59,797 nt of DNA from an uncultured Candidatus Saccharibacteria bacterium (GTDB lineage Bacteria; Patescibacteriota; Saccharimonadia; CAILAD01; BJGX01). Of the stretch, positions 50,111-54,444 are shown piece after piece. Location: NCBI GenBank assembly GCA_964390265.1, contig CAYMHI010000005.1:1-59797 (forward strand), given 5' to 3'. Position 1 is the first letter of the stretch; the number at the start of each line of letters is the position of its first letter. The translations under genes were made by a program, and so were the position numbers. A model generated the notes under the pieces. That model ran no database searches, had not been told where the DNA came from, and worked only from the letters and a program-made list of their open reading frames with translations.

Positions 50111-50187
50111 GGGCTCGTGGTGTAGAGGCCTAACACGCCTCCCTGTCACGGAGGAGATCGCCGGTTCAAATCCGGTCGGGCCCGCCA
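50111..50187 (+). tRNA. tRNA-Asp(GTC)
   Basis: GGGCTCG acceptor stem, CCTCC-CTGTCAC-GGAGG anticodon arm, GGTTCAAATCC T-arm, G73-CCA. Confidence 0.95.
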
Positions 50188-50228
50188 AAGAAAGTGCCTC
50201 AGCAAAGCTGGGGTATTTTCTTTGGCGA
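50183..50228 (+). terminator. Long hairpin overlapping the tRNA-Asp 3' end
   Basis: CGCCAAAGAAAGTGCCTCAGC-AAA-GCTGGGGTATTTTCTTTGGCG. Confidence 0.6.
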
Positions 50229-50387
50229 AGTTTGTTTTGATTTTGACCTTGCTAAGCCGATTAGACAGATGCATAGCATTCTGTCGCTATCCAGTTCGAG
50301 CCTGTATTTTAACTGTTGCAGGGGGAAGGTAGGCGAACAGCAGGTTGGGCTGAATATATTTAAGCTATCTAATAGGGCTTACAATTA

Positions 50388-50416
50388 TTGACTAATTTTA
50401 ATATATACTTTATCAT
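50388..50416 (+). promoter_or_regulatory. sigma70 promoter of ORFan 50451
   Basis: TTGACT-17-TATCAT. Confidence 0.65.
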
Positions 50417-50421
50417 ATTTA

Positions 50422-50463
50422 CGTCCACAGTACCTACTTAAGGAGAACTTTTGCCTACCATCA
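50422..50463 (+). repeat. Shared 42-nt leader/start module, copy 1
   Basis: 37/42 identical to 51528-51569. Confidence 0.85.
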
Positions 50464-50891
50464 TAACGTTGTGTCAGCGAAGCTGGCAACCACCAGACGA
50501 AGGTGTTGTGACTGGCCAAGCAACGACAACTGTCGCGATGACAGAGTGGGTGATGGAACTCACCCCGGGCATCATCAATAGCTACGATGCACGAGATGGT
50601 GTTGATGAGATTGCGCATGATCAGGTATGGGCTTACTATCCACTCATGCACAGACCCACCAACGGTGCCGATGTACTCATTGTGGCTAGGGTTCCAGATG
50701 TTGATCTGAGCTTTGCTGATAGAGAATGTCGCCGCAAGTACTTCAGAGACGCTTACCGCCACGAGCTCAGGTATCAGCTACGGAGCAATAATGATCACCT
50801 AATCATGCCCCATTGGGAGATCGAAGTAATTCCCGAGCTCTCTAGCGGATACGGGCACAACTTCTACCTAGGTGTAGAATACAGCTGGTAA
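50451..50891 (+). CDS. Hypothetical protein (146 aa, ORFan cassette)
   Basis: AAGGAG SD, TTG start, own promoter and 3' hairpin. Confidence 0.7.
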   Translation: MPTIITLCQRSWQPPDEGVVTGQATTTVAMTEWVMELTPGIINSYDARDGVDEIAHDQVWAYYPLMHRPTNGADVLIVARVPDVDLSFADRECRRKYFRDAYRHELRYQLRSNNDHLIMPHWEIEVIPELSSGYGHNFYLGVEYSW

Positions 50892-50898
50892 TTATCAA

Positions 50899-50956
50899 GC
50901 CCCTCCGGGCTCTTCACTCATAGGAGTGGGGAGGTTCCCGCGAGGGGCCTCTTCAT
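50899..50956 (+). repeat. Conserved 3' hairpin element, copy 1
   Basis: GCCCCT..GGGCTC..CACTC-loop-GAGTG..GAG....AGGGGC-CTCTTCAT; homologous to 51382-51440. Confidence 0.8.
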
Positions 50957-51091
50957 ATCTGAAAACATAATGATTGTAACTGTAAGTTGTTAAATATTGA
51001 TTTTAATATAAATTTATGCTAATATAGTGTGCGTTCTCAAAAAGAGAACACTCCTGCCCAACAGACCAACTAGTTAAAGGAGGTTAGCGCA

Positions 51092-51376
51092 GTGAAGCTA
51101 ATCCGACTTCCAGACCCCACGCCCGATATGTGGATTGGTGATTTCACACAGATCATGAGAGCCACTTCAGGCGGTATTTGTGCCACTCCCAAAAACCCTC
51201 AGTTCGGGAACTTCTGGGCCGATCGCCCATGCTCGGTCTTTCAGCACAAATGGCGAACTCTTGCTGTAACTGAAACCGACACTCAGTGGCCCCGTCGAAT
51301 CAACCGGTGCCAGCGTTGCGGGTCACAGGTTCATCAGGACATTACGGTTTCGCCCCCACGGCGAGGCAGTATCTAA
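51092..51376 (+). CDS. Hypothetical protein with a CxxC motif (94 aa, ORFan cassette)
   Basis: AAAGGAGG SD, GTG start, promoter TTGATT-17-TAATAT at 50997-51025. Confidence 0.65.
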   Translation: MKLIRLPDPTPDMWIGDFTQIMRATSGGICATPKNPQFGNFWADRPCSVFQHKWRTLAVTETDTQWPRRINRCQRCGSQVHQDITVSPPRRGSI

Positions 51377-51381
51377 CAACT

Positions 51382-51440
51382 GCCCCTGCGGGCTCAACAC
51401 TCAATTCAAGTGAGTGAAGAGCTCAAAGGGGCTTCTTCAT
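51382..51440 (+). repeat. Conserved 3' hairpin element, copy 2
   Basis: GCCCCTGCGGGCTCAACACTCA-ATTCAAG-TGAGTGAAGAGCTCAAAGGGGC-TTCTTCAT. Confidence 0.8.
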
Positions 51441-51493
51441 GTTTATATTATTTTAAGATAGTTCAGCAATCCGTCTCGATAGCCCGCCCATTA

Positions 51494-51522
51494 TTGACAT
51501 ATATTTGTAATTGCTCTACTAT
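51494..51522 (+). promoter_or_regulatory. sigma70 promoter of ORFan 51557
   Basis: TTGACA-17-TACTAT. Confidence 0.7.
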
Positions 51523-51527
51523 ATGGT

Positions 51528-51569
51528 CGTCCATAGAACCTACTTAGGGAGAACCATTGCCTACCATCA
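51528..51569 (+). repeat. Shared 42-nt leader/start module, copy 2
   Basis: 37/42 identical to 50422-50463. Confidence 0.85.
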
Positions 51570-51913
51570 ACTACGGTAAAATAATCGATAAAGTTCATTT
51601 TCTCGAACCCAACGAAACTGTGTTTTATACTGTATTGAAAAGTGGGCGTCGAGTATTTATTACCTACAACGGTTTCAACAGCAATCCTCTAGATCCCTAT
51701 GAGTCTGATGGAGAACGTATATACTACACCAAGCTGTATGAAGTTTTCGCTCCAGCCAACCTAGAAGACAGCGAGCGGGAGGAAGTGGAGGCACTATTGG
51801 ATCGTTACAAGAAACTCGAGGTTTTTGTTGCTGCGGTTGAGACTAGAGAGCTCAGGCTTGTCGCTCTCGATGCACCTGTTCCGTGGTTGGCAAACTCTCC
51901 GGCCTGTCGCTAG
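51557..51913 (+). CDS. Hypothetical protein (118 aa, ORFan cassette)
   Basis: GGGAG SD, TTG start, 3' hairpin CCCGAGGCTCTA...TAGAGAGCCTCGGG plus T-tract at about 51927-51980. Confidence 0.7.
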   Translation: MPTINYGKIIDKVHFLEPNETVFYTVLKSGRRVFITYNGFNSNPLDPYESDGERIYYTKLYEVFAPANLEDSEREEVEALLDRYKKLEVFVAAVETRELRLVALDAPVPWLANSPACR

Positions 51914-52103
51914 CCCCACAACTGCTCCCGAGGCTCTATATTTGCTTTTAATGCATCTAGAGAGCCTCGGGGGATTTTTTATAACCGCATAGATTGTTTA
52001 TTAGTTGACAATACTATAATAATAGTATAATATCATGTAGTTCTGAGTTTCTCAGAAGATCTTCACATCCAAATACAACCACTCCTAAAGGACGGTGCAT
52101 CAA

Positions 52104-52814
52104 ATGATTGCGTCAACCGAACCTCAATTTCTATACCCGAAGTCCCGCCAGTATCCATTCGATGAGGTATGCGAGCAGATTGTTCGCGCTCTCGAAGAGC
52201 GCGGCTGGGATGTTCCTGGCCTCACCATCAACTTTGGTGTGTATGGTGGTGAAGCAGAGAAATACCGTCTGGTTCGCTCAATTGTTGGCGACGACTTCGT
52301 TTTGCACTTTGGCCGCCCGCAAGGACGACTAGGGCGCTACAACGATACGGCTGCAATCAGCGATATCAAAATTCCTCGTAAAGAGATCCATGTTTACGAG
52401 GATAACTCTGGCCCAAGCCTCTACGTTTACGTTGGCCGAAACTGGGCTAAGGACAAGCAGCGCTTCTTCGGTAGCCTAAAGGTTAACAGCAAGCTTCATG
52501 GCGAGCCTCGTCTGTACCTCTGGTACAAAGGTGGCTGCAACTGCCAGAGCGCCCGAGGTGCGAGCTTTGAGGCCACCGGTTTTTTGACGGCTACCTTAGC
52601 GGGTGACGCAAAGGCTTTGGCAGCAATGAGCCATACCCATCCCGGGCGCCTTGCCCCATTGCTCATCGCCAATAGCGATCTTGGTAGGGAATACTCACCA
52701 AAGGGCAAAGAGCCTGTTAGCTATACAACTGAAGAGGTATTTGCCGAGTTCACTCAGTACCTCAGAGATGCAGTACTGAGGATGATCTTGGCGGCACCTT
52801 TGTTTAGCTCGTAA
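52104..52814 (+). CDS. Hypothetical protein (about 236 aa, ORFan cassette)
   Basis: Promoter TTGACA at 52005; leader hairpin TTCTGAG-TTT-CTCAGAA. ORF open from GTG 52095; ATG 52104 is the likelier start. Confidence 0.75.
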   Translation: MIASTEPQFLYPKSRQYPFDEVCEQIVRALEERGWDVPGLTINFGVYGGEAEKYRLVRSIVGDDFVLHFGRPQGRLGRYNDTAAISDIKIPRKEIHVYEDNSGPSLYVYVGRNWAKDKQRFFGSLKVNSKLHGEPRLYLWYKGGCNCQSARGASFEATGFLTATLAGDAKALAAMSHTHPGRLAPLLIANSDLGREYSPKGKEPVSYTTEEVFAEFTQYLRDAVLRMILAAPLFSS

Positions 52815-52849
52815 GATAGTCACTAGAGGCTGTTTTGAAGGATGTGGCA

Positions 52850-52894
52850 CCGCCCCGTGTTATTAGCACGGGGTGGCCCACCCCAAGATTTCAA
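52850..52894 (+). repeat. GC-rich 3' hairpin with a tail shared with the 38501-38550 element
   Basis: CCGCCCCGTG/CACGGGGTGG stem, then GGCCCACCCCAAGATTTCAA. Confidence 0.55.
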
Positions 52895-53088
52895 ATTATT
52901 TGAAGTTTTAGGTTGGGAGATGATTTTGACTATAGACTACCTGCAGTGCCTTTGTGGGGTCCGTTTATTGCATCTTATTCTTATTAATAATCATAAATAT
53001 TTAACTATTCATATTATATTATTGTATATTTATAAAAAAAGTGATATTATATGTTTCGACCCAATTGTTCCTACCAAGAGAGGCAAAC

Positions 53089-53850
53089 ATGTATATATTG
53101 CTTACAGCTTTTTTGATAACAGTGTGTATAGTAATGCACGAAGCTGGCCATGCATATTGCATGAAGATCCATGGGATACAAATCAAGAGAGCGGGCCTGG
53201 GTTTTGGTCCAGGCATTAAGGTATTCTCAAAAAGGCTAGGTTACCCCATAAAATTTGGGATTATTTTGCTAGGTGCATTCGTAGAACCACAAGATGGAGA
53301 AATGAATCGCCTCAAAACTATGCCATACAGAGTGCAGGCCGAGATTTATGGCGCTGGTGTAATTGCCAATATCGTATTTAGTATGGCTATTGCAGTATCT
53401 CTAAATACGCTAGCCGTTTTACAAGGAGATCTGTCTGGCGGCATTTTCTTAAGTATTGCAATATTTGCAGCACTAGCAGCTTTAGCTTGGTTTAAACGTT
53501 GTTTTTTTTCTATGTACTTGACGCCAGTTATAGGTATGTTATTCCTGGCTTTTCTAGTATATATTCTGTTTTTTAACAGCACGCCAAACAGCTCAGAAGT
53601 GTCAGGTCCTGGCGGTATTGTAGAAATTGTTGGTATGGCCAATTCTTTTGAGTACGGCATGATTATTGCAATGGTCATATCTATCAATATAGCACTCTTC
53701 AATATGTTGCCGTTTGTGCCTCTTGATGGTGGTAGAATATGCTCGGCTCTAGTTCGGCAATACAGCAATAGTATTGCTATTATTTTTGAGGGGGTAAGCC
53801 TGGCAAGCTTCATCGGGCTAATTGCCTACATCTTTATCGTTAATTTCTAA
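53089..53850 (+). CDS. Site-2 protease (M50 family) zinc metalloprotease, no PDZ domain
   Basis: HEAGH (HExxH), GAFVE, AG...N and FNMLPFVPLDGG motifs. Start at ATG 53089 after GAGAGG. Confidence 0.88.
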   Translation: MYILLTAFLITVCIVMHEAGHAYCMKIHGIQIKRAGLGFGPGIKVFSKRLGYPIKFGIILLGAFVEPQDGEMNRLKTMPYRVQAEIYGAGVIANIVFSMAIAVSLNTLAVLQGDLSGGIFLSIAIFAALAALAWFKRCFFSMYLTPVIGMLFLAFLVYILFFNSTPNSSEVSGPGGIVEIVGMANSFEYGMIIAMVISINIALFNMLPFVPLDGGRICSALVRQYSNSIAIIFEGVSLASFIGLIAYIFIVNF

Positions 53851-54021
53851 AATTACAACCGCTAGTAAAATAGCGGTTTTTTTAATATAAAAAAGCATAA
53901 GAATCTTATTGACTTTTGAATAACTATTTGATACGATAAGGGTAACTTCAGAGGTGAAGCCAGATAAGATTTTAATAAATCAAAACAAAAAATAATATAA
54001 AAACAAAAAGGAGGGCAACTA

Positions 54022-54267
54022 ATGCAAGTTGCAATGCTAACATATTATCAAGTCACCAGACCACGCAAGGTAAAGGTGAGGGTGGTTAAGGCACACGATC
54101 AAGTGCCTTATTTGGGTAGCGAAAACGTACTAGATATTCGCTCAATCTCGCAAAAAGGCAAGACTAAGTTTGGTAGATCGTTTTTCTTAAGCCCTAATGA
54201 ACGTAAAATAACCGAGTATGAAGCTTGGCAAAAGCTTTCTAAACGGCTTCAAAAGCGTATTCCTTAA
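54022..54267 (+). CDS. Small basic hypothetical protein (81 aa, ORFan cassette)
   Basis: AAGGAGG SD; promoter TTGACT-17-TACGAT at 53909-53937; terminator at about 54308-54350. Confidence 0.6.
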   Translation: MQVAMLTYYQVTRPRKVKVRVVKAHDQVPYLGSENVLDIRSISQKGKTKFGRSFFLSPNERKITEYEAWQKLSKRLQKRIP

Positions 54268-54368
54268 ATACACACCATACAATCAATCTAACCTGAAATA
54301 TGGTAAAATATGAGTTGCTTTACAAAGATAGTGAGTAGCTCATATTTTTTTGTGTAAATATTTAGTAC

Positions 54369-54444
54369 GCCACCTTAGCTCAGTTGGTAGAGCGATGCTT
54401 TCGTAAAGCATAGGTCGCCGGTTCAATCCCGGCAGGTGGCTCCA
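54369..54444 (+). tRNA. tRNA-Thr(CGT)
   Basis: GCCACCT/AGGTGGC acceptor stem, ATGCT-TTCGTAA-AGCAT anticodon arm, GGTTCAATCCC T-arm, T73-CCA. Confidence 0.95.

Follow-up and report, generated by a model that had tools for sequence, protein, structure and literature searches.

Introduction

Putative mobile promoters are similar upstream regions that stand before non-homologous genes, mostly as pairs and mostly not tied to mobile elements, and their proposed effect is a rewiring of expression; the rule by which they were recognized asks that stretches of 50 nucleotides (nt) or more be at least 80% identical, within a screened range of −150 to −50 and with similarity reaching into the coding region excluded (Matus-Garcia, Nijveen & van Passel 2012, NAR 40:10032; Nijveen et al. 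2012, PMC3575422). Here we describe a relative of such pairs in a 59,797-nt stretch of DNA (the whole of which is hereafter called the window) from an uncultured Candidatus Saccharibacteria bacterium, which corresponds to contig C5 (CAYMHI010000005.1) of a 900,648-bp genome (27 contigs, 98.8% complete). Two small genes of the window, A1 and A2, are preceded by copies of one block, which comprises a predicted promoter, a leader and a translation start and ends within the fifth codon of both reading frames. We consider it likely that A2 is a mosaic unit, in which an 80-nt segment of A1 (perhaps up to about 110 nt) was copied once, within the lineage, onto an unrelated gene of a rare family.

As with the putative mobile promoters, similar upstream DNA is found before non-homologous genes in one genome, as a pair and with no mobile element. 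The flanking coding sequences are non-paralogous, as that rule requires, and the best ungapped 50-nt window between the two copies (41/50 identical, 82%) only just passes the 80% threshold. The similarity described here, however, extends from −67 to +13 relative to the start codon, outside the −150 to −50 range, and includes the Shine–Dalgarno (SD) sequence, the start codon and four codons; what was copied would therefore be not only a promoter but also, by fusion, a translation start. A second relative is the Cit+ case from the long-term experiment with E. coli (Blount et al. 2012, cited in PMC3575422), which, as summarized in the citing paper, was a tandem duplication that fused a downstream promoter to citT and involved no shared start codon. 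As far as that summary goes, the two cases are alike in that a local rearrangement places an existing promoter before another gene, giving (here by prediction) expression; they differ in that about 80 nt were duplicated at the present locus, with the junction inside the reading frame, in an event that is fixed in the species and about 20% diverged.

The start-associated sequences (SAS) and extended start-associated sequences (ESAS) of Cluster K mycobacteriophages are built on the 13-bp GGGATAGGAGCCC, which lies 3–7 bp before the start codon at 93 sites across Cluster K phages, ahead of genes from different families, and is suspected of taking part in the initiation of translation (Pope et al. 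2011, PMC3203893). A previous sequence-only reading of the window, made without database searches, had found the A1/A2 repeat reminiscent of these phage elements, a comparison that we do not uphold. Both present a conserved sequence with an SD core just upstream of the starts of different gene families, but the A1 and A2 leaders (CCTACTTAAGGAGAACTT / CCTACTTAGGGAGAACCA) share with SAS only the AGGAG / GGAG core, and an 80-nt unit that takes in a promoter and four codons and is present twice in a cellular genome contrasts with a 13-bp, many-copy element located upstream of the start codon.

Integron cassettes are promoterless, each ends in an attC site (R''/L''–L'/R' boxes), and IntI lies beside the array. 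The A1/A2 locus resembles such an array in being a run of small, mostly unknown single genes, with a long imperfect hairpin behind each and with relatives differing in gene content. We do not take it for an integron array, given that IntI is lacking and that (predicted) near-consensus promoters precede the individual units, unlike integron cassettes; moreover, the related hairpins occur only twice in the genome, and the repeat under study, an expression signal, is located at the 5′ end. Oliveira and colleagues (2017, Nat Commun) reportedly described chromosomal hotspots, flanked by tRNA or core genes, at which genes are gained and lost. The present locus matches this picture in its conserved flanks (tRNA-Asp and tRNA-Thr), a content that differs in each species, the lack of an integrase and a base composition suggestive of foreign origin, but the hotspot concept covers the locus as a whole and not the copying of a promoter and start between two units inside it.

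A promoter and translation start shared by two genes

The sequence-only reading had drawn attention to a pair of 42-mers, and direct comparison confirms that these (50422–50463 and 51528–51569) are identical at 37 of 42 positions. As it had also said, each begins 6 nt past the end of a −10 hexamer (in the promoter scan TATCAT ends at 50416 and TACTAT at 51522) and runs through TTG CCT ACC ATC (encoding MPTI), with both copies of the repeat ending TTG CCT ACC ATC A. Its statement that the promoter spacers lack similarity proved mistaken, given that they align with three small indels and that the repeat reaches back as far as the −35 box. The repeat is consequently an 80-nt unit (50384–50463 versus 51490–51569) with 61/80 identical positions when ungapped, or 65/83 when the three spacer indels are admitted. 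The position of the transcription start (+1), and hence the equation of the 42-mer repeat with an entire 5′ untranslated region (5′UTR) plus four codons, is a prediction only.

The gapped local alignment of the two copies scores 70, compared with a mean of 19.2 (standard deviation 2.2, maximum 29) among 300 shuffles, and the 42-mer pair is recovered by blastn-short with E = 3e-6 against the 0.9-Mb genome. The homology has sharp limits. At its 5′ end the repeat opens with ATTATTGAC (the −35 box and 3 further nt, identical at 9/9 positions), upstream of which (beyond −67) resemblance is weak and non-significant; at its 3′ end, local alignment places the limit at 50463/51569, one base past codon 4, where DNA identity falls from 88% to background within one base. 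Between the A1 and A2 gene bodies there is no DNA similarity, and blastn aligns the 80-nt block alone. Ungapped identity is unevenly spread over the block, with 9/9 in the −35 block, 15/29 in the spacer, −10 box and discriminator, and 37/42 in the leader and four codons. Logan contigs of three other samples (97–99% identical), one of which spans A1, A2 and the intervening gene B1, have the same layout; since these are independent assemblies, the repeat did not arise through misassembly. The species is present in samples SRR35878597, SRR25722605 and SRR26978866.

The two proteins are unrelated and A2 is a probable composite gene

The A1 and A2 proteins are not homologous. No BLASTP alignment between them is found at E ≤ 100, and hhalign, applied to a profile of the A1 family (five sequences) and one of the A2 family (two sequences), returns a probability of 0.4%. 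This is the profile–profile comparison that the sequence-only reading had suggested, and it finds no full-length homology, in agreement with the dissimilarity that reading had noted in the remainder of the two proteins. Comparison of the structure models is unusable at their predicted local distance difference test (pLDDT) scores of 40 (A1, a poor model) and 64 (A2).

A full HMMER pass over 1.84 billion representatives finds a sole relative of A2, P0006 (111 amino acids (aa); E = 1.9e-11, 36–38% identity, query residues 12–116), and a word search of 5.8 billion proteins returns none beyond A2 itself. The alignment of A2 with P0006 begins only at residue 11–12; the N-terminus of P0006 reads MTPREK, without MPTI, and the DNA upstream of P0006 (locus L020) has no similarity to the block (z = −0.4 against the A2 copy and −0.3 against the A1 copy). 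Upstream of the A2 TTG, at a distance of four codons, there is an in-frame TAG, and downstream no start is possible before codon 22, within the part conserved with P0006; A2 would for this reason be translated from the copied TTG behind the copied SD; with no other usable start codon, the gene appears to depend entirely on the copied block for its start.

Both A1 and A2 are kept by purifying selection. Conspecific strains differ by 6 synonymous and 3 non-synonymous changes in A1 (ratio of non-synonymous to synonymous polymorphism (pN/pS) 0.14) and by 12 and 8 in A2 (pN/pS 0.20). Neither protein has a match in Pfam, PHROG, PADLOC or NCBIfam or in profile searches of the PDB, nor does the AlphaFold model of A2 match any PDB fold at E ≤ 0.001. 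A phage or defence origin was considered and rejected: tblastn finds no match to A1 or A2 in 50,697 phage records, and the PHROG, PADLOC, Pfam and NCBIfam searches are empty except for two weak PHROG matches for B1. IMG/VR likewise holds no relative of A2.

The block belongs to the A1 family

Orthologues of A1 (P0002–P0004; 77, 73 and 71% identity) are found in three other lineages on Logan and ENA contigs. All have MPTI at the same place as their first residues, use ATG or GTG as the start codon, and follow a leader of the form ...TAGTACCCAAYCAAAGGAGGCnnn-ATG/GTG-CCT-ACY-ATC behind a related promoter (L007, L009 and L011 types). Because the orthologues have the related promoter, the leader and MPTI, the block belongs to the A1 family; among related loci it is carried solely by A1-family genes, and the direction of copying is from A1 to A2. 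The two window copies are nearest to each other (65/83, versus 55–58/85 to the orthologue blocks) and have in common derived states that are absent from all orthologues, namely the TTG start, TACTTA and GAGAAC. On the simplest reading of this distribution, the copying would post-date the separation of this lineage from the others that bear A1, and would be older than the divergence of the sampled strains.

No further copies of the block in the collections searched

A genome-wide search for the leader, which the sequence-only reading had recommended, finds it followed by two open reading frames (ORFs) only, A1 and A2. No third copy is present in the genome by pattern search with 3 mismatches, by blastn-short or by an nhmmer profile of the two copies; the third nhmmer match (C3:21831–21917, E = 0.0018) shares promoter bases only (TATTGAC...TATCATATTTACGT), its leader and ORF being different. 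MPTI was also considered as a common N-terminus: M/V/L-P-T-I opens ten ORFs in the genome, one of which (MPTINQLIRK) resembles ribosomal protein S12 at its N-terminus, but the leader of the block precedes none of them. Pattern searches allowing up to 3 mismatches find no block in 31 genomes of the family, the 33 matches among GTDB species representatives all fall in unrelated phyla, at chance expectation, and two JGI metagenome scans (with the window-type and the orthologue-type leader) return no copy.

With no copy beyond the two in the genome, family, GTDB and JGI searches, a genome- or clade-wide portable module is rejected. The portable expression module proposed by the sequence-only reading survives in one respect, as a complete module (promoter, leader, SD, start and four codons) does head two unrelated ORFs, and fails in the other, recurrence, with two copies in this genome and none in the other collections searched.

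A proposed single capture of promoter and start

We propose that the copied segment would provide all the expression signals of A2: −35 and −10 boxes, a leader of ~29 nt that is predicted to be unstructured, the SD, and four codons following on from the TTG as the first of them. Transcription, by RNA polymerase carrying the housekeeping sigma factor, would begin ~6 nt past the −10 box, the open leader would be bound by ribosomes at (A)GGGAG, translation would be initiated at TTG, and the A2 product would bear the MPTI of A1 as a four-residue translational fusion. Expression of A1 and A2 would be expected to be alike, because A2 holds the copied expression signals of A1. The copying itself probably proceeded by illegitimate or short-homology recombination, or by duplication followed by in-frame deletion, within a gene-turnover hotspot where self-contained units (promoter, ORF and strong hairpin) would be gained, lost and recombined. 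Duplication and deletion, together with recombination of the homologous or the illegitimate kind, would be enough for all that is seen at the locus. This is an ordinary, single capture of a promoter and translation start, a known kind of event, and not a general plug-in system.

Taken alone, such an event is ordinary in evolutionary terms, and its value is that of a clean, dated example and of a marker for recombination activity in the hotspot. It would document, base by base, how an orphan or horizontally acquired gene in a minimal genome can gain its full expression signals in one step from a neighbour, the gained set being promoter, leader, SD and start codon together with a four-residue N-terminal tag. 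Promoter captures of this type would be missed by screens that are limited to the region upstream of −50 or that discard similarity running into coding sequence.

Several points weigh against this account. For the A2 family just one relative, and a distant one (36% identity), is known, so that divergence could account in part for the differing N-terminus. A state preceding the capture did not turn up, whether as an A2 with its own 5′ end or as a strain without the copy. A2 could in principle be read through from B1, though a hairpin of −30.7 kcal/mol intervenes. Lastly, conservation within the block is uneven (46/51 identical positions in the −35 box and leader versus 15/29 in the spacer, Fisher p = 0.0002), which could reflect selection beyond general expression signals. 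We would read this unevenness as ordinary constraint on the −35 box, the SD, its distance from the start and the early codons, alongside an AT-rich spacer that turns over rapidly.

Leader conservation and possible regulation

Uneven conservation is also the starting point for a different explanation, in which the leaders are kept alike by selection for a trans-acting regulator (a protein or small RNA acting at the translation-initiation region), with A1 and A2 forming a small post-transcriptional regulon. This explanation, which we regard as unlikely, concerns the maintenance of the likeness and is compatible with an origin by copying. Between the copies, leader and first codons match at 37/42 positions versus 15/29 for the spacer, and CCUAC is found on both sides of the SD; general constraints on the SD, spacing and early codons would nevertheless explain most of this pattern. 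Both copies persist in three conspecific metagenomic strains with 0 changes in 84 leader positions (0/42 in each leader, against 7/38 differences in the A2 spacer), as a regulator would predict, but with ~2.5 changes expected the deficit is not significant. The leader and the synonymous sites of codons 2–4 are conserved among A1 orthologues too, yet the two window leaders differ from one another at 5 positions and strongly from the orthologue leaders.

It also speaks against such a regulator that the leader has no stable or covarying structure and no Rfam match. Its predicted structure is no better than that of shuffles (z = +0.45 for A1 and +1.03 for A2), and an alignment of five leader sequences folds at −3.7 kcal/mol with weak pairing of the SD to codons 2/3 and no compensatory pairs; Rfam returns tRNAs only, even at E ≤ 5. 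As for an antisense or small-RNA partner, 12-mers complementary to the leader occur in the genome at chance level. An open, unstructured translation-initiation region is the expected appearance of a good expression signal. Separately, a structured leader, riboswitch, ribozyme or thermometer was considered and rejected (positive fold z, no covariation, no Rfam family).

A hypervariable interval between two tRNA genes

The interval from tRNA-Asp to tRNA-Thr (window 50188–54368) was compared in five genomes of the genus, where it measures 1.4, 1.9, 2.6, 4.2 and 6.2 kb and each genome has its own set of ORFs. The same tRNA-Asp edges the variable interval in four same-genus genomes and on the A1-bearing contigs, which represent this interval in other lineages. 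Only the 81-aa gene next to tRNA-Thr is kept in all genus genomes compared, and neither A1 nor A2 was found in the four other genus genomes. In the window, the interval holds four small same-strand ORFs (A1, B1, A2 and B2), followed by an M50 peptidase gene and the conserved 81-aa gene. GC content at third codon positions is 46–56% in the four cassette genes (50451–52814) and 33–39% in neighbouring core genes (encoding the M50 peptidase, a 554-aa protein and a PrsA-like protein), which suggests a foreign or horizontal origin for the cassette genes. The locus has every appearance of an actively recombining gene-turnover hotspot.

Sigma-70-like promoters scoring 10/12 in the promoter scan precede A1, A2 and B2; B1 has an upstream TTGATT / TAATAT pair that was read from the sequence and is unlisted by the scan. 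A very stable long hairpin lies behind each of A1, B1 and A2 (−38, −31 and −31 kcal/mol; z = −4.7 to −7.3). On the strength of these predicted promoters the four genes would be single-gene transcription units, and the hairpin behind A1 is probably the terminator of its unit.

Several intergenic pieces of the hotspot recur next to unrelated genes, which raises a second alternative: that the block is a recurrent module or recombination boundary, and the interval a cassette-shuffling locus without a recombinase, in which the promoter/start block at the 5′ side, an inter-cassette element of 21–41 nt and the long 3′ hairpin would act as anchors within and between species and permit in-frame 5′ exchange. 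We judge this quite improbable; were it true, the A1/A2 repeat would be one footprint of the system and the first in-frame 5′ swap to be caught. The 3′ piece is a long imperfect hairpin ending ...GGGGCYTCTTCAT, which stands behind the unrelated A1 and B1 and occurs only twice in the genome. Behind A1 orthologues it is 88–95% identical across species (L007 694–751, L009 1910–1968, L011 3682–3739), even though the synonymous divergence of A1 between the window and L007 is about 0.58, and the two L011 hairpins, behind A1 and behind a B1 homologue (2140–2195), are 83% identical to each other; the B1 homologue, 53% identical to B1, occupies a different position in L011–L014. This hairpin could be a terminator or, possibly, a recombination anchor. 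The inter-cassette piece, a 41-nt element at 51448–51488, is 83% identical to L013 1448–1488, where it lies upstream of a 212-aa gene; its 21-nt core (AATCCGWCTCGATAGCYCGCC) also lies ahead of a 236-aa gene in L011 (957–977), L012 and L013 (2288–2308) and is present once in the window genome. With such pieces the A2 unit would be a mosaic drawn from three sources or more. Further points in favour of shuffling are a common 45–50-nt block upstream of three unrelated L011 genes (z = 9–14; two of them without a BLASTP match to each other), repeated intergenic blocks in L020 and a gene content that is different in every species.

Shared terminators and promoters are, however, expected under duplication or ordinary homologous recombination, and the block itself, found solely with A1-family genes and once with A2, is present twice in the genome, and none of the collections searched yielded another copy. 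Nor is there a recombinase at the tRNA-Asp/tRNA-Thr locus; the sole tyrosine recombinase of the genome (36414–37418, reverse strand) is located 13 kb away and is Xer-like, its best matches being to XerC/XerD/XerA models, below or near cut-offs, while the integron-integrase model scores 159 bits versus a cut-off of 265. The recombination boundary that the sequence-only reading had offered as an alternative to a portable module accordingly finds some support in a hotspot with other intergenic pieces common to unrelated genes, but there is no sign of a dedicated in-frame boundary.

The remaining explanation, that A1 and A2 are ordinary tandem-duplication paralogues whose bodies have diverged beyond recognition around a retained 5′ end, would suit two adjacent genes of the same direction and similar small size with a common promoter, leader and four codons, but is highly improbable and close to refuted. 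Neither sequence nor profile comparison (BLASTP, hhalign) shows similarity, a single base separates 88% identity from background, and a homologue of the A2 body exists whose 5′ end is different. The order of predicted secondary-structure elements is not the same in the two proteins (though the A1 model is poor). The derived states of the block, finally, are younger than the separation from lineages in which A1 proteins have kept 71–77% identity, which therefore leaves too little time for complete divergence of the body.

Features of the locus and of related loci

Coordinates of the A1/A2 locus, all in window numbering, are collected in Table 1.

Table 1. Features between and including tRNA-Asp and tRNA-Thr; promoters, 5′UTRs and terminators are predictions.
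Feature	Position	Strand	Basis or remark
tRNA-Asp(GTC)	50111–50187	+	ARAGORN, Rfam; left edge of hypervariable interval
A1 promoter part of repeat: ATTATTGAC, −35 TTGACT (50388–50393), 17-nt spacer, −10 TATCAT (50411–50416)	50384–50421	+	Promoter scan 10/12
Predicted A1 5′UTR; SD AAGGAG (50440–50445), 5 nt ahead of TTG start	50422–50450	+	Sequence reading
Gene A1, 146 aa	50451–50891	+	Native owner of block; orthologues P0002–P0004
Long imperfect hairpin behind A1, then CUCUUCAU	50899–50948	+	Fold −37.9 kcal/mol, z = −4.7
Gene B1, 94 aa; separate unit between the two repeat copies	51092–51376	+	ORF list
Hairpin behind B1, related to A1 hairpin	51382–51432		Fold −30.7 kcal/mol
Inter-cassette element, 21-nt core AATCCGTCTCGATAGCCCGCC, directly 5′ of A2 block copy	51448–51488	+	83% identity over 41 nt to L013 1448–1488
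A2 promoter part of repeat: ATTATTGAC, −35 TTGACA (51494–51499), 17-nt spacer, −10 TACTAT (51517–51522)	51490–51527	+	Promoter scan 10/12
Predicted A2 5′UTR, apparently copied from A1; SD AGGGAG (51546–51551)	51528–51556	+	37/42 with four codons versus 50422–50463
Gene A2, 118 aa, probable mosaic	51557–51913	+	Codons 1–4 (TTG CCT ACC ATC) from A1, body of another, rare family
Predicted A2 intrinsic terminator: long hairpin and T-run	51925–51980	+	Fold −31.2 kcal/mol, z = −7.3; T-run read from sequence
Gene B2, 239 aa	52095–52814		ORF list
81-aa gene adjoining tRNA-Thr	54022–54267		Kept in all genus genomes compared
tRNA-Thr(CGT)	54369–54444	+	ARAGORN, Rfam; right edge of hypervariable interval

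B1, the gene between the two copies of the block, is near-invariant between strains (1 difference in 285 nt) apart from a one-base insertion near its 3′ end in one conspecific strain (window 51352; L017 902–1228), which shifts the frame and yields a product of 108 instead of 94 aa.

The three L011 genes with a common upstream block start at 263, 1027 and 2291 and encode proteins of 212, 236 and 165 aa. In this block a small hairpin, AAAAGACnnnnnnGAGTCTTTTT, leads into a TATAAT/TATACT box. BLASTP finds no match between the proteins of 236 and 165 aa, and the start codons of their genes lie ~6 nt past the box, which suggests that their mRNAs are leaderless.

In L020, the locus that carries P0006, GC-rich ORFs are parted by AT-rich spacers (175–330 and 807–945), each of which repeats a ~60-nt block (...ACTTACCA...TGGTTCCATRAGAATCCAATGAGGCCCACCA...) behind a long hairpin that terminates in GGGGGCWTCTTC; cassettes are built here as they are in the window, but in another organism.

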